Positions 14,836 through 62,371 of a stretch of DNA of 64,000 nucleotides are shown here, piece after piece. The stretch lies in assembly GCA_000004985.1 (NCBI GenBank), contig GG738883.1; one strand, written 5' to 3'. The notes under the pieces are model-generated. The model worked only from the letters and a program-made list of their open reading frames with translations. It was not told where the DNA came from and ran no database searches. The first letter of the stretch is position 1. Each line of letters opens with the position of its first letter. Source of the stretch: Naegleria gruberi. Taxonomy: Eukaryota. A program made the translations under genes and the position numbers.

Positions 14836-16446
14836 ATGAAACCACACCACCATCAAAAAAGAAATAACCAATCTTTAACTGCATCATCACCAATTCTATT
14901 CGGTAAAATTCCTCATGTAGTAGAATTGTCATCATCACAACAAACGAATTATCACAATAATGAAGAAGTGAAATCGTTAACTGTTTCGGAAGAACAATCT
15001 TGTGGAAACATGACAAGGAAGGAACATAAACCGAGGAAATCCAGAGATTTTGCAAATAGGAATGTGAAAAAGCATGCTGACTCTAAAAACAAACGAAAAT
15101 TGACCAATAATTTTGTGCATTTACCTTGTGAATTAGTATTGCATATTGTAGAATATTTGGAGTTTTCACAATTTATTCACATCTTTCTATTGTGTAAAAA
15201 TTTAACAAACAAATTGAATGAAAATTCCTCTCAATTCTACAAACTGCTATTGATTAGAATTATGAAAAGTGATATTTCCAGCTATAGGAGATATTTAGAG
15301 GAGAGAACCAAGTATAATTCCTGTCCATTCTCATTCGATATTAAGAGCACTTGCTTTAAGGCAAGAGGAATTGTACAGTGGAAAAGGTTGATTGAAAAGA
15401 GAGAGCACGAATTGGATAATCATTTGAATAAGAAACGAAAAGAACTCAAGGATTGGAAACAAGTTTATGACGGCTATTCGAGGAGAAGATCCATTGAGCA
15501 TGTCATGTTTAGAGTGAAAACTGTTTCGAAAGCTTGTTGGAAGAATGATAAGTCCTTGATTCTTGTTTTGAAAATGATAACTCAATTGAGGGAGAAATTG
15601 TTGAAATTGGACCCTGAATTGAGAAAGTACATTGTACAGAGAAATTATGGAAAGAGAATCAAAAGAGGACATACACTCTTCCATCAAATAGTTTATCTGA
15701 TTGGAAATTATTCAGAAATTCGATATGATTATGAATCTATTCAACCTTTCGTACCCCATCTCAAGTTTCTAATTGGATGTTGTGGAGAAGAAAATCCTCT
15801 CTTTACCAGAAATTCATACAATTACTCTGGAATGGATTATATTGTGAGAATTGGGAGTTATGCACTCATATCAGAGATGGTCTATTCGTACTCTCATCTA
15901 TTGAAAGGATCAGATTTATCAACATTTGAAAGGAAACCATTCTTGTTTTCCATGATTAAGAACAAGATTGCTAGCACAGTTATTAAGAATTGGATTCAAA
16001 AGTTTGAATTTCCAAAATCCTCTTTGACTATTCGAAATCATCTCAATATGAATATTCTTCACTATCTGATGCACTTTGTATTTAAATATGGTACCCAAGA
16101 CTTTTCACAATTCGTTTACCTTCTGAAAAGTGAATTATCTGAAGAGCAAGTACTAGCAATGCTAAAGGGAAAAGATGATTTAGACGAAACACCAATGTCT
16201 AAACTCCTTTCTATGTGTGAAAATAATCAAAGGAATTCCAGAGTAGGAATAATCAATTGGAAGAATCTTAAAAGACTGTATGGTCTGGTCAATATGATGG
16301 CTATTCGCTTGGGATATGATATGAGTAGTGAGGAATTGGATCGTTGGAATAATTTATTGAGAAATAATGATGAAATATTTGGAGATTCTTGTTCGAAATT
16401 TCATCTTTCTGAGGGAGTTATTGAAATGATGAGAAAAGGAATGTGA
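14836..16446 (+). CDS. F-box-like protein.
   Basis: LPCELVLHIVEYLEFSQFIHIFLLCKNL fits the F-box consensus (LP.E....I..YL........VCK.); the rest is unrecognised. Confidence 0.5.
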   Translation: MKPHHHQKRNNQSLTASSPILFGKIPHVVELSSSQQTNYHNNEEVKSLTVSEEQSCGNMTRKEHKPRKSRDFANRNVKKHADSKNKRKLTNNFVHLPCELVLHIVEYLEFSQFIHIFLLCKNLTNKLNENSSQFYKLLLIRIMKSDISSYRRYLEERTKYNSCPFSFDIKSTCFKARGIVQWKRLIEKREHELDNHLNKKRKELKDWKQVYDGYSRRRSIEHVMFRVKTVSKACWKNDKSLILVLKMITQLREKLLKLDPELRKYIVQRNYGKRIKRGHTLFHQIVYLIGNYSEIRYDYESIQPFVPHLKFLIGCCGEENPLFTRNSYNYSGMDYIVRIGSYALISEMVYSYSHLLKGSDLSTFERKPFLFSMIKNKIASTVIKNWIQKFEFPKSSLTIRNHLNMNILHYLMHFVFKYGTQDFSQFVYLLKSELSEEQVLAMLKGKDDLDETPMSKLLSMCENNQRNSRVGIINWKNLKRLYGLVNMMAIRLGYDMSSEELDRWNNLLRNNDEIFGDSCSKFHLSEGVIEMMRKGM

Positions 16447-30726: not shown

Positions 30727-32259
30727 ATGAATACAACAACGGAAGACATCTTTTCCGAAGCTACAAATTCCATTCCGATTAATAATAATAATACTGATGA
30801 AGATGAAACCATGATGCAAGCTGCGATCGGAACGTTTTCTGATTTATCACATCAAACCGAATTGATGATTTCAATCTTTGAATATTTACCTTTAAATAAT
30901 ATTGCCTTGTCTTGTGCTTTGACTTGTAAGGCTTGGAATTCAATGATTCGTGAAACTCAAACTCTGTGGAGAAGTGTTTGTTTAAATGAGTTGGGATGGC
31001 CTGTTAGTCTATCAACGGATGATGTTTTATTTCAAGAGGAATTGAAGGCAAAGATTGAGAAGGGAGAAATGGATGCATTGTCGTCACCTCTTCCTTCCAA
31101 TTCAAAGGATGATTTAACTAAATCGAATGGAAAACGTGCCATTTCAATTTGTGGAAAGAGTTTCATGTGGAAGGATTTGTGTTTCATGTTGAATCAACCT
31201 GCTACTTTGTACATGTTTAGTAATACTTTGGCTTCAAAGAGGGATTGCACTGAATTGTATAATGAAATTATGAATGAGAGTTATACGATTTTGGACGATA
31301 CATTCCCAGATGATAAGTTTATTGTCTTGAAGAATGCCAAACTGATTGATTGTATTTGTACAGAATTGTTAATTTTACAAAAGCAAAAAGTGTTAACTCA
31401 GATTATGAGCGACAAATTGTACGATATTTTCATTCCAGTTCTTGAGAAGATGAGAAAGGAACCATTGTCTACAGATTCAATTCAATTATTGAGATATAGA
31501 CAAATTGTTTTGGGAAAGAACAAGTTTAGTTTCTTATTCACAAAAAAGAATTTTGAAGATATGCAACAAGTCGTTCAAGAAAATATCAAAGGAAAATACT
31601 CATTATTTGGAGTTTATTTATTGAATGATGATGGTCATAATTTCCAAGAAGTTACCGATCAAGTGAAACGAGCTTTTAATAATGATATTGACTTTGATTA
31701 TTGTGATTCATTGGTATATAAGGCCCATTTTAATGATGAAACTTTGCTATTTGAGACTCGTGACTTTGATGTTGCTATGGAGGCAGTTAAAACCCTCTCT
31801 GCCATTGATTTACATTGCATTCTTACACTTCCAGAATATGATGCCTTGCAAACCATTAGAAGAAGATTTGCAATTAACAGTGAAATGTTGGAATTTTATA
31901 ATGAATTTGCTCCTGAGAATGCCAAATCAAACTTTGATAAGATATTGAAAAATTCAAGTAAGGATGAAAAGTTTGTTGTGGTTCTCTATCGTTCCATGCA
32001 TAGTCCTGGTGGTATGGCAAATATTTTACGTTCCGTTTTTCCTAGTTTGAGTGAACAAGATTGCTTGGGAATTTACTTTACTGTTGCTACATTTGGATAT
32101 TGTTTTATTGCAAGTGGAACATTTGATCAGTGTAAAGCCATTGCTGAAAAGCTCACCAAACTTTTCCTTAATGTCATGTTAAAAACTGAAAAGCAAGCCA
32201 TATTGGATGAAACTGAAGAACAGGAAGAAGAGGAAGATGAATACATCGATGAGGAATAA
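30727..32259 (+). CDS. F-box-like protein with acidic C-terminus.
   Basis: ISIFEYLPLNNIALSCALTCKAWNSMIRETQTLWRSV fits the F-box consensus; ends DETEEQEEEEDEYIDEE. Confidence 0.5.
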   Translation: MNTTTEDIFSEATNSIPINNNNTDEDETMMQAAIGTFSDLSHQTELMISIFEYLPLNNIALSCALTCKAWNSMIRETQTLWRSVCLNELGWPVSLSTDDVLFQEELKAKIEKGEMDALSSPLPSNSKDDLTKSNGKRAISICGKSFMWKDLCFMLNQPATLYMFSNTLASKRDCTELYNEIMNESYTILDDTFPDDKFIVLKNAKLIDCICTELLILQKQKVLTQIMSDKLYDIFIPVLEKMRKEPLSTDSIQLLRYRQIVLGKNKFSFLFTKKNFEDMQQVVQENIKGKYSLFGVYLLNDDGHNFQEVTDQVKRAFNNDIDFDYCDSLVYKAHFNDETLLFETRDFDVAMEAVKTLSAIDLHCILTLPEYDALQTIRRRFAINSEMLEFYNEFAPENAKSNFDKILKNSSKDEKFVVVLYRSMHSPGGMANILRSVFPSLSEQDCLGIYFTVATFGYCFIASGTFDQCKAIAEKLTKLFLNVMLKTEKQAILDETEEQEEEEDEYIDEE

Positions 32260-32369: not shown

Positions 32370-33908
32370 TTAACAAATGATACAATCACTTTCCTTCTTG
32401 GTTTTTTTAGACGACTGAGAAACTTGTGGTGAAGCTAATTCTCGTTCCTGTCTCTGCTTATTGAGCTCTCTCAATTGTGATGCTTGATTCGCGTAGGCGT
32501 TCGCTCCATGCTTTTTCGTTGTATTAGAACCAGGTTTCTTTTCTCTAATTGTTGGCACATTTGCATATGGAATGCTTGGATCCTGTTCGAGAGGAGTTTG
32601 AACTACCCTAGGAGATGTTTGAGGATTATTAGCTTGTTGCTGAGGTTGTTGAAATTGTGGATTAAATTGTTGCTGTTGTTGAGGGTGAGGATGTGCCTGA
32701 GGTTGTCTTGTTTGTTGCTGTTGTTCATGCATCATTTCTTGCTGATAGGCCATCTCCTCTTCTCTTTGAAGTTGAAGAGCTAGTTGTAAATCTTCATCGT
32801 GTTGCTTACTATCCACAACTGGTGCTTTTTCCTGTTGATAATATTCATAGTTTTGAGAGTGAGTTTCCAGCATTCGGAATGGTGTAAAATCTCCCAAATA
32901 ATATTGTTGATCTTCTCCATGAATTGTCAAATTTTCCCAGACAATGTTCGTTTCATTTAGGAGAGTCTCATTTGTACAGAGTGTGAGGATTGCTTCCTGT
33001 ATTTTACAAATTACTGAAAAGTGATTATTTCTGAAAAAGATGGCAATCTTTCTATCAGCCAAACTATTGTGAAGGGATGCCAAACCATATTGTGTCAATT
33101 GTGATGGTGAGTTGGTAAGGAAAGTTTGAATGAGTGATCCTTGTGAAATAATATCATTCTTTTGATCGACTGGTAATCTGGTGACCATTTCTTCTGGAGT
33201 TTTCAATTCTGTCAAATCAACGTGAGCAGATAGAATTTGCTCAATAACTTTTCCACTCTTTTTCATTTGCTCTTCTGCATTGATAAGTTCATTCATTAAA
33301 ACAATCTTTTCGACTGCTTGATCGTAGGAGAGACTTTTGAGCGCTTTAAATGTTTCAAGCTCAGATTCCGAATCTACAAGCCATCCGTGCATTAATTTGA
33401 TATTGAAAAAGTTGAACACAGACAAGTCACAAGTTGTAAATCCATGAACTCCTTCAGTAAATTGTACATTGACATCGAGACCATGTTTGAGTTTTGGAAC
33501 TGAGTCTAGAGCTGCTTGTAACATCTTTCCCTTCTCTCCATCAGTATCTGATTTACTATATTTAAGATTGTATGTATCCAACATGGATTGGGCAAGAATC
33601 TGCACAAGACTTTCATTTGTAATAAATCCATTCACAATGAAATTGTCAATAGCACTCACATCACCTCCTCTCAATGAAATTATATTAAATACAGCAATCA
33701 GAGGACAAGGACCATTTAAATTCTGCAGAACGATCGGAGTTCTTCTCTCTCCAATCAAGACTCGTTTTACTCTGTACTTTTCTATAGTTCCTTCCTCATC
33801 AACATCCTTTGCTGCTAATTGAATTGTATCTCCTTCTTCCATATTTACAAATGTTGCTTCTTCCGATTGTTGTTGTTGTTCTTCTTGATTATTTGTATGA
33901 TCGTCCAT
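32370..33908 (-). CDS. MINDY-family (FAM63/DUF544) deubiquitinase.
   Basis: RRTPIVLQNLNGPCPLIAVFNIISL matches the MINDY catalytic-Cys block (TPILLQNENGPCPLLAI). Downstream HGWLVD and NNHFSV blocks are present. Q-rich C-terminus ending ...SDCIIC. Confidence 0.75.
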   Translation of the reverse strand: MDDHTNNQEEQQQQSEEATFVNMEEGDTIQLAAKDVDEEGTIEKYRVKRVLIGERRTPIVLQNLNGPCPLIAVFNIISLRGGDVSAIDNFIVNGFITNESLVQILAQSMLDTYNLKYSKSDTDGEKGKMLQAALDSVPKLKHGLDVNVQFTEGVHGFTTCDLSVFNFFNIKLMHGWLVDSESELETFKALKSLSYDQAVEKIVLMNELINAEEQMKKSGKVIEQILSAHVDLTELKTPEEMVTRLPVDQKNDIISQGSLIQTFLTNSPSQLTQYGLASLHNSLADRKIAIFFRNNHFSVICKIQEAILTLCTNETLLNETNIVWENLTIHGEDQQYYLGDFTPFRMLETHSQNYEYYQQEKAPVVDSKQHDEDLQLALQLQREEEMAYQQEMMHEQQQQTRQPQAHPHPQQQQQFNPQFQQPQQQANNPQTSPRVVQTPLEQDPSIPYANVPTIREKKPGSNTTKKHGANAYANQASQLRELNKQRQERELASPQVSQSSKKTKKESDCIIC

Positions 33909-42766: not shown

Positions 42767-43922
42767 TTACATAATTGAACACTTTTTTCCACTGTTGTTC
42801 CTTCTATATTTTTCTAAAATATTTGAGTCTTGTACAATGATTGTTTGTAATAGTTGTAAATCATCAGGTGAGAAGCTTTTCGACATTTTCATACATTCAT
42901 TAAATACTAAATCACTCTTCAACTTGTCCTGCGCAGATGCTTCAATAATTCTTGTGTTTTTCAATTGGAATCGAGTAATAATTTGGTTAATTTCATTCTT
43001 ACAATCAGTAATGGAAATTTGAATTTCTGTTTGTGGAATATCAATCTTGTTAATAACGAAAACCATGGGTAATCCAGCATTTTCGTTAATGTTCAAAATT
43101 TTCTTTACCATGCCATTTAAATTTTTCAAGGATTCACTGTTATCCAGAGAGCAGACCAGTATGAAACTCATTGCATCTCTAATATAACCATCTCTTAATG
43201 CTGCAAATTCCTCCTGACCAGCTGTTATTGAGCCATTGCATATTTATTTTCAATGGAATTCCAATAAAAATATGATATTGTACTTACCAGTATCCAGAAT
43301 TTCAGCAAAGACAGGTGCCCCATCAACAGAAACTTCCTTCCTATACGAATCCTCCAGGGTTGGATCATATAAACTAACAAATACACCCTGTATAAATTGA
43401 ATAGTCAAGGCTGTTTTACCAACCCTTGCTGCATATTTCAATTTAAATTTCACACCAAATAACAATTCAATAATAATTTTCAATAACATTTTAAATATTG
43501 AATAACATTCCAAATGATTACAAACCTTCTCCCATAATGACCATTTTAATAATATCCTTTTCCCAAACACTCTTTGAACTCTTCACTGCAGATTTAATAA
43601 ACCTCATCAATAACAGTTTCCTCCTCAAAACATTCTTTCTAATCATTTCCTCTTTCAATTTGTTTAATTCTTCCCCCAGTGATGCATTCGTTCCTAAATC
43701 CACTTGAAATAATTTCCACCAAAATTCCTCCATCAAATACTTGTTAGTTTCTTTGCAGAGTTTGGAATTAAGTGCTTGAAACTTGATAATGCTCAGTGCA
43801 CATGCCTTCCGAACCGAAAACTCAACTTGTTTAATATCCGAAGGAATTAGAAAAGAGAGAATATGTCGATGTATTTCGTTGGGTAATGAGAGAAAGGCTG
43901 ATGATGATTGCTTAGTAGACAT
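42767..43922 (-). CDS. F-box + Ras-family small GTPase fusion with a C-terminal CaaX box (CSIM). Join: exon1 43922..43526, intron 43525..43429 (GTTTGT...TATGCAG), exon2 43428..43288, intron 43287..43222 (GTAAGT...AACAG), exon3 43221..42767.
   Basis: N-terminus [33 protein letters not shown] is an F-box. The spliced GTPase reads ...KMVIMGEG|[48 protein letters not shown]|[14 protein letters not shown]...FVINKID...EASAQD...KKCSIM*. G1 (GEARVGKT) is completed across intron 1 and G3 (DTAGQE) across intron 2. The Ras effector loop [11 protein letters not shown] is present. Confidence 0.65.
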
Positions 43923-44863
43923 TTTTTTTAAAGTTTTGTAATCAAACTGTTGTTGTTCATTTGATGTTCCTTTTGATCTTGTTGTGGATGATTACAATAA
44001 TATAGCTCAACAATGTTCTCATACTTGAATTTGTTGTTGAGTGTACCAACCATTGTTCTTCCACTTGTGCCAAATCAATCTACCGTGCCATTCTTTGTTT
44101 TATACATATTTAAATAATACTGGAATATTTCTTTTTTCATCTTCTTTCAGGGAAGTAAATCGATGCTTTTCGGTTTCCCAGGTTGGGGAAGCTTGTAAGG
44201 AGGTTATAAAGCAAGAAAATACCCTATCCAGCAGGTGTAAATCTGTTAAGGCCTATTGACTGAAGAATAGAAGAAACTAATGTGTTGTTTGCCATCCCAT
44301 GAATATTGTCCATACCAACATTAATAGCCTCTTCGTTCACCTCAACTAATCGTTTTGGATTCAAAGAAATAGATTCGCCCAAATTTAAATTGTCATTGGT
44401 TAAGGAATGGTAACATTACCTCACTAACATGAGTTAATATGCAAGATTTACAGGCAATTGATAAACTCGAGAAACCAAAGAAAAGTTATGTCTATTATCG
44501 TAAACATGAAAAATAATCCACACTCCTACCTAATAAACCTCAAATTTACTCTTGATACAATCCTTAAACTTGATCAGTTACAGTTGGTTATTCTTCACAT
44601 ATTGCATCAACTTGCCTTAATGATCAACAACCGTCTTTTACCGCTCAAAATCGTTAAGGTTCTCAAACATTTTACCGTTGCACAATTTAAAATCATCACC
44701 AGAAAAAAACGTTCAAGCTCTTTGCAGACTAGTAGTTAAAAATCGTTGATTGCAACCGCCTTATCATCATCACACAAGCAATTAAATTATTAATATCAAC
44801 CCAGATACTAAGCATTCACAAAAGTTATAATAATTAAGAACCCTCATCAAATTTATTTACAAA

Positions 44864-45571
44864 ATGGCCACCAACTCGATATCAAATATTGTCTTTGATT
44901 ATCCAACTGCTCCTCCTTCTCTTGCTACTCATTTGAACGCTCCTGGACATTCGATTCGTAACTCTTCACATCATTTTCATCCAGTAGCCACAGCAAAGAT
45001 TGGAAAATCATCCTGCAGTAGTAGTGACTCATCTGGTCCAATTCAATCCTCAAGCGAACCTCTAAGAGTACCAACAAGAGTAAATCCAACAAAGAATCAA
45101 TCTTCCATTTCTTTCATTCCATCTAAGAGTGAAAGCTCAACTAGTGCATCTTCTTCGAATAACAAATCTAACAAGTCACTGAACTCTTCCACTATTAAAG
45201 TGACTGAGGTTGGAGCTGTTAGCTCTGTCGAATCACCAAATTTCTGGGCTAGAAAGAGTAGAAATGCTGGATTCAAGAAGGAGGATAATCTCTCCGATGG
45301 TTTGGCCACATTCTTATCAGAAAAGAAGACCATTGAAGATGGTCGTCCAGAGAATATCAGTGGTGCTACCCTCAAGAGAAGTATTGCCACACCAGTTCCT
45401 AATGAGAAACCAACAAGTAAGGTCAAAACAATTGCTCCACCATCCAATGATGATCCACGCCCTAATAGATTGGCTCAAATTCCACCTCCAGTGATTAAGG
45501 AGAAGGCAAGAGGAAAGGCCAAGCTAAAGGAAACACAACCAACTAGACCGACCTTTGCTACTCACTACTAG
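44864..45571 (+). CDS. Ser/Pro/Thr-rich low-complexity protein.
   Basis: 235-aa ORF; no domain. Confidence 0.35.
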   Translation: MATNSISNIVFDYPTAPPSLATHLNAPGHSIRNSSHHFHPVATAKIGKSSCSSSDSSGPIQSSSEPLRVPTRVNPTKNQSSISFIPSKSESSTSASSSNNKSNKSLNSSTIKVTEVGAVSSVESPNFWARKSRNAGFKKEDNLSDGLATFLSEKKTIEDGRPENISGATLKRSIATPVPNEKPTSKVKTIAPPSNDDPRPNRLAQIPPPVIKEKARGKAKLKETQPTRPTFATHY

Positions 45572-45836
45572 ATCAATTTTTATAATCTCTATTCTTTAAT
45601 TGTAAATACAAGAACTAAGCCGCCCCGATGATTATCAGACATTAACCATTGAAGAAAATTCAATGGTTTAAATGATGATGATTAGAAATAAAATTATTTT
45701 CAAATAATCAATACAATATTGTGTATTTTCTATTGTTGATAGGGAATTATTGCAAATAATAATAAATATTATTATTTATATTTAATATCAAATTTAATTA
45801 ATATTCTGATAGATCATTTAATAATAAAATTAAAAA

Positions 45837-46622: not shown

Positions 46623-48719
46623 CTATCTGAATTCAACACTATCATCACTGTCAGCTCCATATTCATCTTCGTATTCCTCTTCACTGGCATACTCTGATTC
46701 ATACCCACTAACTTTTCCAGAATTGGAAGGTCTAAAACGAGAACCCAATCTTCTAGAACTTCTCTTATTGCTATCAGAAATTCTTATTGACCTAGTCTTT
46801 AATGATCTGACCTCACTTAAATATTCCTTATTTTGTGAATCCATTTCTTGTAATCTGAATTCGAGCATTTTTCTAGTCTTTTCTTCAGTATTCAATTTCT
46901 CCCTCAATTGTAGAATCGTATTGATCATTTGCTGATATGATAATTTGTTGATACTAATTATATTATTACTGACTGTACCTTCTATTGTCATTAATTCATC
47001 CACTGGATGATCAAGAGCGATCTTTCTTTCATCTTCAAGTTTTTTTTGTTGTTCCATTTTGGCTTGTTTTGCAATCTTGAACTCCTTCTTGGTCAAGACA
47101 GCTCCAAAGTTATCAGGATCATTCTTTGCCAATGCGACAAAAGATTCATATCTCTTGAGCACTGATGATAAATTGTCATGCCACATTCTAAGTGAAATGG
47201 ATGTGTCAACATAATGATAGAGGGAAGGATCTTGTTCTGTAGATCCAAAATCTTCTGTTACAATTACACTAGTGTTAAATCCACCTTTTTGTTGGTAAAT
47301 GACCTTGATGCCATTTACAGAATCAGTATTGGTCTTTTTTTTTTCTTCCTTTTTACCTGGTTGTTCCTCATCATCATCCTCTACCTTTTCAACAGTCTTG
47401 ACTTGGTTCATAATTTCCAATTTCTTAATATGATCGTATGGAATTTCACGATCGACAAGAAATTCTGATTGTGCATGACCTTCACTTGTAGTTGATTCAC
47501 GAATAGTCATGACAACCAAAGATTCACCAGTCAATCTTACCAATCTCAATGGATAAATCATATCAGCACCAACTGATAATTTTTCAACAATACCTCTTGG
47601 CATGTGACCTCTGAAATTCTTTGAAGCACCTCCTCTCTTTTGTTCTGTATCAGATCCACTTGAATAATTTTTTGGTTGGAGACCTACGAGAAGTTGCTTT
47701 TTGGCAACTCCACCACTAGGTGAGCTTGGAGAGGTACTAGGCGAATTAAACATTGAACCAGCTCTCAAATGTTGCATACCACGAGCACTGAGAGCTCCAC
47801 TTTGAGTTGAAGTTGTAGAGGTTGCACTCTTCTTGACCCACAATTGATCACGAGACAAATTCTTTGAACCCTTAAGCTCTATATCATAAGGTGAATCATT
47901 TTCAAAAATTTGAGAATAATTCACAACGAGTACTGACACAATTGCACAAATAGTTGGAGTATCCTTAAGAGAATTCATTGCAAAAGCAGATGGATCATCT
48001 CTCTTCAAATCACCATTCTCATCCTCCTCTTCAGAGGGAGCCCACAATAAATTCGGACCCAAAACCAGTGCAACATTCTCATCATTCATCATGGTTACCT
48101 CACGATTCTTCACAATCAATGCACACAAGGCCATCAACCTCTCCAACACTACAATATTCCTCTCCGACATGCTTCTCACAATTCCTCTCAATTCAATCAC
48201 CCTCTCACGTGTAATACTCGACTCGGCACCACTCGTCGATTCATTTTCTTCTTCTGATGCTGCTGAGGAGGAATTGGCGCCAAACAAATTACATAATTTA
48301 CGATAGAATCGAGCTTCAATCAGCGGCTGAGGCAACTCTCTCAGGTACATCTTCAACAAGCTGGCAATGGCATTCGGATCAGTGCCTGGCATGATGGGTT
48401 TATAGTTGGAATTGTTGGCCTCTTCGAATTGTTGTTTGAGTGCCTCGGTATGACGCAGAGAACCACTCACACGAAAGATGCCCAATACCTGACCATGAAT
48501 GGCAATGTAGGAACAGAGCATGTCGATAAAGTCTGGAACTGGTGGAAGATCGGCTCCACTAGTGCTGCTGCTTGATGATGATGAGAGTTTTTGTTCCTTG
48601 TGGAAGAGAAATCCTAATGGTCTGCCAAAGATTTTGTTCACTTTGAATTGTTGGAATGTTGTTATTAGAAAGGTTGTTATTATTATTCGAAAGTGGATTA
48701 AATTGATGAGCCAATTCAT
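46623..48719 (-). CDS. RhoGAP-domain protein; N-terminal boundary uncertain.
   Basis: GIFRVSGSLRHTEALKQQFEE (arginine finger), LLKMYLRELPQPL, and MMNDENVALVLGPNLLW. The first ~25 residues of the ORF look non-coding, so there may be an upstream exon. Confidence 0.75.
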   Translation of the reverse strand: MNWLINLIHFRIIITTFLITTFQQFKVNKIFGRPLGFLFHKEQKLSSSSSSSTSGADLPPVPDFIDMLCSYIAIHGQVLGIFRVSGSLRHTEALKQQFEEANNSNYKPIMPGTDPNAIASLLKMYLRELPQPLIEARFYRKLCNLFGANSSSAASEEENESTSGAESSITRERVIELRGIVRSMSERNIVVLERLMALCALIVKNREVTMMNDENVALVLGPNLLWAPSEEEDENGDLKRDDPSAFAMNSLKDTPTICAIVSVLVVNYSQIFENDSPYDIELKGSKNLSRDQLWVKKSATSTTSTQSGALSARGMQHLRAGSMFNSPSTSPSSPSGGVAKKQLLVGLQPKNYSSGSDTEQKRGGASKNFRGHMPRGIVEKLSVGADMIYPLRLVRLTGESLVVMTIRESTTSEGHAQSEFLVDREIPYDHIKKLEIMNQVKTVEKVEDDDEEQPGKKEEKKKTNTDSVNGIKVIYQQKGGFNTSVIVTEDFGSTEQDPSLYHYVDTSISLRMWHDNLSSVLKRYESFVALAKNDPDNFGAVLTKKEFKIAKQAKMEQQKKLEDERKIALDHPVDELMTIEGTVSNNIISINKLSYQQMINTILQLREKLNTEEKTRKMLEFRLQEMDSQNKEYLSEVRSLKTRSIRISDSNKRSSRRLGSRFRPSNSGKVSGYESEYASEEEYEDEYGADSDDSVEFR

Positions 48720-61354: not shown

Positions 61355-62371
61355 ATGGGTGAATTATTTAAAAAAATGAAATTGTTGGAACTGCCAGACG
61401 AAATTATTTTTCATATTTTGGGATATTGTTGTGTAGCAGCAGAAAATCATCATGAACCTCTACTCCGAAATCCATATGTTAGACAAATGGCCAAAATACA
61501 ATCTATCAACAAGGATTTTTCAAGAAGAATTAAAAGTTATTCTGATACGTTTTGGAAGAGTCTTTTAGTGGATGAATTTGGAGCGAATAAGCAATTTATT
61601 AAATTAATAGATGATCAAATAACAGGTACTTTGCAAAATAAGAAGATTTCACTGAAGAGAAGAGCACTCTTGTTGAGAAAATTATTTAGTAGGAATTTCA
61701 AAATTAATACCAATAAGCAACCTGGTTATTCCGAATGTAAATTTTGTGTTTCTGGACCTGCTAATACTGGTAAAACTTGTTTAACCACAAAATACATAAC
61801 AGGTGAATTTCCACAAGTTACAGATCCAACAATAGAAGACAGCTACAGAAAGATGATACGAGTAGATGAATATTCACACCTTTTGGATATTTTGGACACG
61901 GCTGGGCAAGAGGAATATAAAGCAATGAGAGATGGATATATTGCAACATCACAAGCTTTTGTAATTACTGCAAGTTTAGATCTTATTCCAACAGAATGTA
62001 CACAATATTACGAGGAATTATTGGCTCAAATTATAAGCATTAAGGATTGGAAAGGAGTTGGATGTTATCATCCAATGGTTTTTGTAGTGAACAAGTCTGA
62101 TTTAGAACAAGAGGAAAGAAAGTCAACATTTGAGGAATGGAAAACATTTTTGAATTCAGTTATAGAGAGATATGGAATAATGAATTCTGAGATTATTGAA
62201 ACCAGTGCCAAATCCAATATTAATGTTTCAAAAATATTTGAATTAGGTATTAGAATGTTTCTACATTTTCATTTTAGTCACGTTTTTTGGTTTCAACAAG
62301 TAATTGAATTGGATACAAAAGCTTTTAGTCACACAGAAAACAAATCCGAAAAGAAATGTTTACTACAATAA
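61355..62371 (+). CDS. F-box + Ras-family small GTPase fusion with CaaX box (CLLQ); single exon; paralog of 42767..43922.
   Basis: LELPDEIIFHILGYC (F-box), linker ...KRRALLLRKLFSR..., then a complete GTPase: GPANTGKT (G1), TDPTIEDSYRKMIRVDE (switch I), DTAGQEEY (G3), VNKSDL (G4), ETSAKS (G5), and terminal KKCLLQ*. Track ORF 61310 starts at GTG; first ATG at 61355. Confidence 0.7.
   Translation: MGELFKKMKLLELPDEIIFHILGYCCVAAENHHEPLLRNPYVRQMAKIQSINKDFSRRIKSYSDTFWKSLLVDEFGANKQFIKLIDDQITGTLQNKKISLKRRALLLRKLFSRNFKINTNKQPGYSECKFCVSGPANTGKTCLTTKYITGEFPQVTDPTIEDSYRKMIRVDEYSHLLDILDTAGQEEYKAMRDGYIATSQAFVITASLDLIPTECTQYYEELLAQIISIKDWKGVGCYHPMVFVVNKSDLEQEERKSTFEEWKTFLNSVIERYGIMNSEIIETSAKSNINVSKIFELGIRMFLHFHFSHVFWFQQVIELDTKAFSHTENKSEKKCLLQ

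Follow-up and report, generated by a model that had tools for sequence, protein, structure and literature searches.

Organization of the locus

A 64,000-nucleotide (nt) stretch of Naegleria gruberi DNA (contig GG738883.1 of assembly GCA_000004985.1), hereafter the window, contains two genes, denoted gene 1 and gene 2, that are predicted to encode fusions of a divergent F-box with a Ras-family small GTPase. In both products, the F-box region is followed by a helical linker, a Ras G domain and a C-terminal CaaX box. This common architecture, described in an earlier note made from the letters of the DNA, was found again in both genes and recurs in homologs from four species. The features of the two genes, in window coordinates, are listed below.

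42767..43922, minus strand: gene 1, XP_002674622.1 / EFC41878.1 / D2VMR9, annotated 'ras family small GTPase', 330 amino acids (aa), 3 exons
43526..43922, minus strand: gene 1 exon 1, with the start codon, F-box, helical linker and first G-domain strand up to 'GE' of the P-loop
43704..43898, minus strand: gene 1 predicted divergent F-box, aa 9-73 (basis: hhalign comparison of the family profile and AlphaFold2, AF2)
43578..43685, minus strand: gene 1 two-helix linker, aa 80-115 (basis: family alignments and AF2 helices)
43429..43525, minus strand: gene 1 intron 1, 97 nt, GT..AG, phase 1, inside the P-loop
43288..43428, minus strand: gene 1 exon 2, from ARVGKT of the P-loop through the switch region to 'DT' of G3
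43222..43287, minus strand: gene 1 intron 2, 66 nt, GT..AG, phase 1, in the Ala59-equivalent codon
42767..43221, minus strand: gene 1 exon 3, with AGQEE, NKID, SAQ, the C-terminal helical extension, CaaX and stop
42770-42781, minus strand: gene 1 CaaX box CSIM; stop codon 42767-42769
61355..62371, plus strand: gene 2, XP_002674532.1 / D2VMT0, annotated 'ras family small GTPase', single exon
61385..61570, plus strand: gene 2 predicted F-box region, LELPDEIIFHILGYC ... KIQSINKDF ... DTFWKSLL (basis: PF13013 match and family profile)
61739..62251, plus strand: gene 2 Ras G domain, with GPANTGKT, TDPTIEDSYRK, DTAGQEE, NKSD and SAK; Pfam Ras E 1.3e-27
62357..62371, plus strand: gene 2 CaaX box CLLQ and stop codon

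Joining of the gene 1 exons (43922-43526, 43428-43288 and 43221-42767) yields an in-frame translation of 330 aa, and exact look-up in NCBI and UniProt showed this protein to be identical at every residue to the three database entries given above. The three-exon model in the earlier note is thus exactly the annotated one. As the note had also pointed out, the G1 and G3 motifs of gene 1 become complete only after splicing: intron 1 splits the P-loop (GE/ARVGKT) and intron 2 splits G3 (DT/AGQEE), and both are restored exactly. The homologous gene of N. fowleri, FDP41_005795 (L001 4256-5476), contains a phase-1 intron in the Gly60-equivalent codon, 3 nt (one codon) downstream of the position of gene 1 intron 2; this offset could reflect either intron sliding or independent gain. 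The remaining introns are not common to the two genes.

For gene 2, the single-exon model of the note stands, with the exception of the start codon: NCBI uses the second ATG, at 61376, which gives 331 aa, whereas the ATG at 61355 chosen in the note lies 7 codons upstream and gives 338 aa.

A lineage-specific family in Naegleria and Willaertia

The family to which the two genes belong was assembled from the corrected sequences in Table S8 of Herman et al. 2021 (BMC Biol 19:142, Supplementary Material 4), where the GTPases of N. gruberi and N. fowleri were re-annotated; from an exhaustive HMMER search; and from N. fowleri FDP41_005795, a homolog whose C-terminus is also CSIM. Lists returned by word-index homology searches were swamped by canonical Ras proteins and missed XP_002674622.1 and XP_002674532.1, both of which were recovered by exact look-up and by the exhaustive HMMER search. 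The latter also added members from N. lovaniensis and Willaertia magna, as well as an environmental sequence. In N. gruberi, the resulting family numbers about 20 or more loci, and it has further members in N. fowleri, N. lovaniensis and W. magna; altogether, the same architecture is present in more than 25 loci of four species and in the environmental contig. Many 'Ras' paralogs of N. gruberi in Table S8 share the N-terminal pattern LPxEILxHILSF ... FQS[IL]xKK ... FNxFWW ... LKxxMIKKxxLKRKxLL. Genes 1 and 2 are real, intact members of this Naegleria-Willaertia lineage-specific family.

The environmental contig L002 (ENA ERZ929261, PRJEB11402) corresponds to positions 42874-45752 of the window and is 97% identical to it; therefore, a close relative of N. 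gruberi NEG-M was present in the sampled environment. Compared with gene 1, the contig differs in 2 of 886 exonic nt (1 of the 397 nt of exon 1), in 5 of the 97 nt of intron 1 and in about 4% of the flanking positions, and retains all four splice dinucleotides.

A predicted divergent, insertion-split F-box

The N-termini of both proteins, identified as F-boxes in the earlier note, indeed appear to be divergent representatives of this domain; the assignment is decided by profile-profile comparison and by the Willaertia homologs. Both proteins contain the N-terminal motif LPxEIxxHIL, and across the family L13, P14, E16, I21 and W68 are nearly invariant. In gene 1, the order of the elements is helix 1, a 15-aa insertion, helix 2 and helix 3 (EEFWWKLF); in N. 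fowleri, the insertion between helices 1 and 2 can be as long as about 60 residues. Because this insertion stops the matches after helix 1, the F-box is missed in domain scans with single sequences. The W. magna members, in which the long loop is absent, follow the F-box-like profile over almost its entire length: P0168 matches PF12937 with 22.9 bits at positions 2-44 of 47 (E 7.4e-5), and P0155 gives an F-box-like score of 21.4 bits. Among the N. gruberi paralogs, F-box-like domains were among the best Pfam matches of the N-terminus for 7 of 12.

When the 22-sequence alignment of the family N-termini was compared, using hhalign with default settings, to a 15-sequence F-box reference that was partly entered by hand and partly made of Naegleria Rab-like sequences, and hence is not an independent curated profile, the match had a probability of 95% (E 3.6e-8, score 43.9, 47 columns). 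It extended over the three helices and took in the LP dipeptide, the hydrophobic pattern of helix 1 and the Trp of helix 3. The reference consisted of human Skp2, Fbw7, beta-TrCP and cyclin F, yeast Cdc4, plant TIR1 and nine Naegleria Rab-like F-boxes from Table S8. As controls, a reversed version of the reference reached a score of 7.5, and none of 30 versions with shuffled columns exceeded 14.8, compared with 43.9 for the real one.

A structural model of the gene 1 protein obtained with AF2 from 15 sequences had a predicted local distance difference test score (pLDDT) of 82.9 and a predicted template modeling score (pTM) of 0.74, and the N-terminal region was helical (block pLDDT ~76-90); with only 3 sequences, pLDDT was 54.6 and that of the N-terminus was below 50. 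Helices were modeled at 15-25, 35-51, 53-58 and 61-76 in the F-box region (block pLDDT ~76-88) and at 80-95 and 99-115 in the linker (pLDDT 85-90). The linker is conserved in all family members and has the family motif LKxxMIxKxxL[KR]RKxLL. The earlier note had described a basic linker with a shared 'RR.LLL.R.F' block; the actual motif is L[KR]R[KR]xLL, and the last positions of the proposed block are out of register between the two genes.

Several results weigh against the assignment of a functional F-box, among them the makeup of the reference alignment. In gene 1, the domain falls below every Pfam threshold and helix 1 alone is matched (PF12937, 15.1-17.0 bits against a cut-off of 24.3; PF00646, 13.3-14.3 bits against a cut-off of 20.5); a match to the F-box-like poxvirus PRANC domain (E 0.006) is likewise sub-threshold. 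The HMMER check proposed in the note thus had an ambiguous outcome, also when judged by the refuting condition that the note had set: sub-threshold for PF00646 and PF12937 in gene 1 but above the cut-off in gene 2, where PF13013 (F-box-like_2) reaches 23.5 bits (E 5.6e-5) and so just exceeds its cut-off of 21.6. When PDB sequences were searched using the profile of the family N-termini, no F-box match was significant, the best being FBXO42 with E 0.27; matches to CapV and SHP2 in the same search arose from the linker and were rejected as spurious. In fold searches with the full model, the Ras domain dominated every list. Finally, some family members have degenerate G motifs or are flagged as pseudogenes in Table S8, a pattern of birth-and-death evolution in which some copies may be functionless.

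The Ras domain, its catalytic residues and the CaaX box

Both proteins are members of the Ras family by their Ras-like fold and their Pfam matches (PF00071; E 1.9e-33 for gene 1 and 1.3e-27 for gene 2), and the effector loop is of the Ras type, YDPT(L/I)EDSYRK (TDPTIEDSYRK in gene 2), in agreement with the Ras-subfamily G domain described in the note. The nucleotide-binding motifs, with GxxxxGK[ST] in G1, DxxG in G3, NKxD in G4 and SA[KQ] in G5, are retained in both genes; in gene 1, the preserved motifs include the Ras-type effector loop, DTAGQEE, NKID and SAQ. However, the note's description of the G1-G5 motifs as intact does not hold for G1, which is non-canonical: the P-loops are GEARVGKT in gene 1 and GPANTGKT in gene 2, with A/R and A/N, respectively, at positions 12/13. 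Thus, the catalytic set of Gly12, Gly13 and Gln61 is incomplete in both genes, with Gln61 retained in each.

Substitutions of this kind are common to nearly the entire family. In the motif table, 25 of the 27 members lack Gly12/13 or Gln61; in most relatives of the two genes it is Gln61 that is substituted, by Pro (the commonest change), Leu, Ala or His, or else the motif is degenerate. Two exceptions are listed, which carry A59P or A59Y; one belongs to the 27-member table, and Table S8 supplies the other, an additional paralog. Across the family, most members retain the P-loop lysine, NKxD and the effector loop. Ras proteins with such catalytic substitutions bind GTP but hydrolyze it poorly and are resistant to GTPase-activating proteins (GAPs). 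Given the replacement of Gly12 and Gly13 and the family-wide catalytic changes, regulated GTP hydrolysis by genes 1 and 2 seems unlikely, and, judging from the sequences, F-box-Ras proteins are more likely to be GTP-locked than to be cycling switches. A precedent is RhoH, a GTPase-deficient protein controlled by its expression level and short half-life (PMC13236570). The recruitment of substrates gated by the nucleotide state, which had been envisaged in the note, accordingly becomes less likely for both genes and for nearly the whole family.

Both proteins end in a C-a-a-X sequence with X = M, S, Q or A, namely CSIM in gene 1 and CLLQ in gene 2, and almost all family members in the motif table end in C-a-a-M/Q, with none ending in Leu. 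By the usual rule for X = M or Q, these are predicted farnesyl-type CaaX boxes, in agreement with the note.

A helical extension of about 30 aa separates the G domain from the CaaX box (42782-42880, minus strand, in gene 1) and is conserved in nearly all family members. It has the consensus xxLxLLKxxIxxDxxxφ and was modeled by AF2 as two helices, 298-310 and 313-323 (pLDDT ~80-89).

Comparison with known GTPase fusions

The earlier note did not recognize a described family in these proteins. In fact, the genes have been annotated and catalogued, and fusions of this kind have been published, in Naegleria in 2021 and in a trypanosome protein, TbFRP, in 2013. Herman et al. 2021 found the F-box to be the most frequent extra domain of Naegleria GTPases, combined with Rab, Rho, Ran and Galpha, along with one Ras containing a BTB domain, and proposed 'GTPase-dependent ubiquitination' in Naegleria. 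Genes 1 and 2 fall into this class of F-box-GTPase fusions, with an F-box predicted N-terminal to the G domain of the Ras superfamily and a lineage-specific expansion, and, like many of these proteins, they possess a CaaX box and belong to a family evolving by birth and death. They differ from the described Rab, Rho, Ran and Galpha fusions in the Ras-subfamily G domain and the insertion-split F-box. In Table S8, both XP_002674622.1 and XP_002674532.1 are entered simply as 'Ras', their 'Additional domain(s)' cell being empty, as it is for all the other Ras-clade paralogs examined there, and no Ras row of the N. gruberi sheet is marked 'F-box'. No mention of the accession numbers of the two genes was found in the main texts of the papers searched.

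Several Rac rows in the N. gruberi sheet contain similar N-terminal LPxEIL extensions, of which some are flagged as F-box and others are not, for instance, XP_002677510.1 ('KLPEEILSEIGNFL'). Under-calling of F-boxes may extend beyond the Ras clade, into Rac-type GTPases.

TbFRP (Tb927.7.3790), from the Euglenozoa, resembles genes 1 and 2 in being a protein of a discoban protist in which an F-box precedes a Ras-like small GTPase; it is a FYVE-F-box-GTPase with a G domain closest to Rab18/Ypt6 and no CaaX (PMC3593210). Adung'a and Field 2013 found no N. gruberi ortholog of TbFRP (PMC3593210). The Pfam scan of genes 1 and 2 yielded no FYVE match, and orthology with TbFRP was ruled out by the missing FYVE domain, the Ras-type G domain and the presence of CaaX. 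Rab40, with its SOCS box (cullin-RING ligase 5, CRL5), and RhoBTB, with its BTB domain (Cul3), likewise join a small GTPase covalently to a cullin-RING adaptor, which makes the GTPase a component of an E3 ligase, and RhoBTB is also an atypical GTPase. However, in these proteins the adaptor is C-terminal to the GTPase, the cullin is Cul5 or Cul3 as opposed to the presumed Cul1, and the GTPases belong to other families; genes 1 and 2 gave no SOCS-box or BTB match in Pfam at E <= 1. Rab40 and RhoBTB are functional analogs from animals rather than homologous fusions. Compared with canonical Ras proteins (H/K/N-Ras, M-Ras and R-Ras), genes 1 and 2 add a 120-aa N-terminal region of F-box and linker and a 30-aa C-terminal helical extension, and have A/R or A/N at positions 12/13.

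Hence, the annotation of the genes, this type of fusion and the role proposed for it were already known, and no new category is opened. What is new is the cryptic, insertion-split F-box predicted on the whole Ras clade, the extension of the family to Willaertia, and the family-wide pattern of catalytic residues.

Relationship of the two genes and the genomic neighborhood

Along their entire length, the products of the two genes share 32% identity (E 3e-48). The closest paralogs of gene 1 are XP_002668509 and XP_002673033 (38% identity), and that of gene 2 is XP_002671663, encoded on another scaffold (58% identity). Thus, the two paralogs reported in the note within 20 kb do belong to one family but are not each other's closest relatives. 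They are located on opposite strands and separated by 17 kb that contain many unrelated genes (RhoGAP, esterase, glutathione S-transferase and others). A recent tandem duplication is therefore ruled out, also by the closer paralogs, and the pair represents, at most, an old local duplication.

Of the long open reading frames (ORFs) in the window, 7 of 10 are exact matches to N. gruberi NEG-M RefSeq proteins encoded on one 371-kb scaffold. The window holds several genes of the ubiquitin system. D2VMR3 (30727-32256, plus strand) contains a strong F-box-like domain (E 2.9e-10) and, at aa 293-357, a ClpS-like match near the threshold (22.4 bits against a cut-off of 23), so that this protein could be an F-box fused to a domain of the N-degron-reader type. 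The gene at 32373-33908 (minus strand) is named in UniProt as a MINDY deubiquitinase-domain protein, and the one at 14836-16443 (plus strand) as an F-box-domain protein, for which there was no Pfam match at E <= 0.001. A RhoGAP-domain protein of 698 aa (46626-48719, minus strand; E 1e-29) is encoded about 3 kb from gene 1, with no evidence of a functional link.

Predicted function and alternative explanations

The explanation that we favor, and consider somewhat more probable than not, is that the F-box-Ras proteins form a family of membrane-held, mostly GTP-bound substrate receptors of the Skp1-Cul1-F-box (SCF) ubiquitin ligase. The F-box would dock on Skp1 and thus place the protein in the SCF (Cul1) complex, the conserved two-helix linker would hold the Ras domain in the position that is occupied in other F-box proteins by WD40 or leucine-rich repeat modules, and the farnesyl group would hold the complex on the membrane. 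The Ras domain would be mostly GTP-bound owing to poor hydrolysis and GAP resistance, and its effector surface would capture binders, namely, proteins with Ras-binding (RBD) or Ras-association (RA) domains or Ras regulators, and present them for ubiquitination. The abundance of the protein would depend on its turnover and not on a cycle of GAPs and guanine nucleotide exchange factors, as in other F-box receptors and GTPase-deficient small GTPases. A more specific proposal, which we regard as tentative and rather doubtful, is that the Ras effector surface serves as a degron reader, making these proteins natural 'Ras-effector degraders' that would act at the membrane on RBD/RA-domain proteins or Ras regulators; taken with the F-box fusions of Rab, Rho, Ran and Galpha, this would mean that amoebae of the Naegleria lineage have systematically linked each major small-GTPase effector interface to Cul1, with a different partner for each paralog.

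The main rival is what survives of the suggestion in the note that the GTPase delivers itself to SCF. Here, the F-box would bind Skp1 mainly for SCF auto-ubiquitination of a short-lived, GTP-locked Ras, so that ordinary effectors signal instead of being degraded, and the output is set by transcription and turnover. The family-wide catalytic substitutions, which call for another off-switch, fit this explanation, and there are parallels in the GTPase-deficient, short-lived and expression-controlled RhoH and in the RhoBTB complexes autoregulated via Cul3 (PMC13236570); coupling of the F-box to rapid turnover was also suggested by the authors who described TbFRP (PMC3593210). Nevertheless, we consider self-turnover as the main role unlikely, although the two roles can coexist: the rigid two-helix linker present in all members is the typical geometry of F-box receptors that present substrates. 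Such geometry is seen in the structures of Fbw7, beta-TrCP and Skp2. Less probable still, the N-terminal extension would be an F-box remnant that has lost its affinity for Skp1 and would serve an atypical Ras as a helical module peculiar to the family, for example, in autoinhibition, dimerization or targeting to a membrane or partner. The domain is interrupted by a 15-60 aa insertion in the Naegleria members, such that Pfam detects helix 1 alone; its second half aligns at low posterior confidence if the alignment is restricted to Naegleria sequences; and the pTM of 0.74 suggests that the N-terminal and C-terminal helices are packed against the G domain in a defined arrangement. However, bona fide F-boxes tolerate loop insertions, as in the longer loop of the TIR1-type F-box, and the LP dipeptide, the E, the helix-1 hydrophobic heptad and the helix-3 Trp are nearly invariant in 22 sequences from four species, which argues for continued selection on the F-box surface.

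At the far end of the range is an artefact in which a separate F-box gene and a Ras gene were wrongly merged in the gene model or the assembly. It is true that prokaryote-style ORF calling on metagenome contigs breaks up both gene 1 and its N. fowleri homolog at the introns. Yet gene 2 is a single uninterrupted ORF, the GT..AG introns of gene 1 restore the P-loop and DTAGQ exactly, and the architecture is found in more than 25 loci of four species, with exons co-conserved in an independent environmental strain. The argument from splicing raised in the note against mis-assembly is thereby reinforced, and the artefact, to which we assign a negligible probability, is effectively refuted.

Implications for Naegleria

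About 20 or more genes of N. gruberi, along with their N. fowleri homologs, are annotated only as 'Ras', the predicted F-box having been overlooked by routine scans owing to the loop insertion. The family-wide loss of Gly12/13 or Gln61 predicts that these proteins do not act as switches but as receptors or decoys to which GTP is constitutively bound. Provided that the F-box functions, Ras would be a further Naegleria GTPase, after Rab, Rho, Ran and Galpha, that is permanently tied to a cullin ligase, and the case for GTPase-directed ubiquitination as a major regulatory layer in amoebae of the Naegleria lineage would be strengthened.

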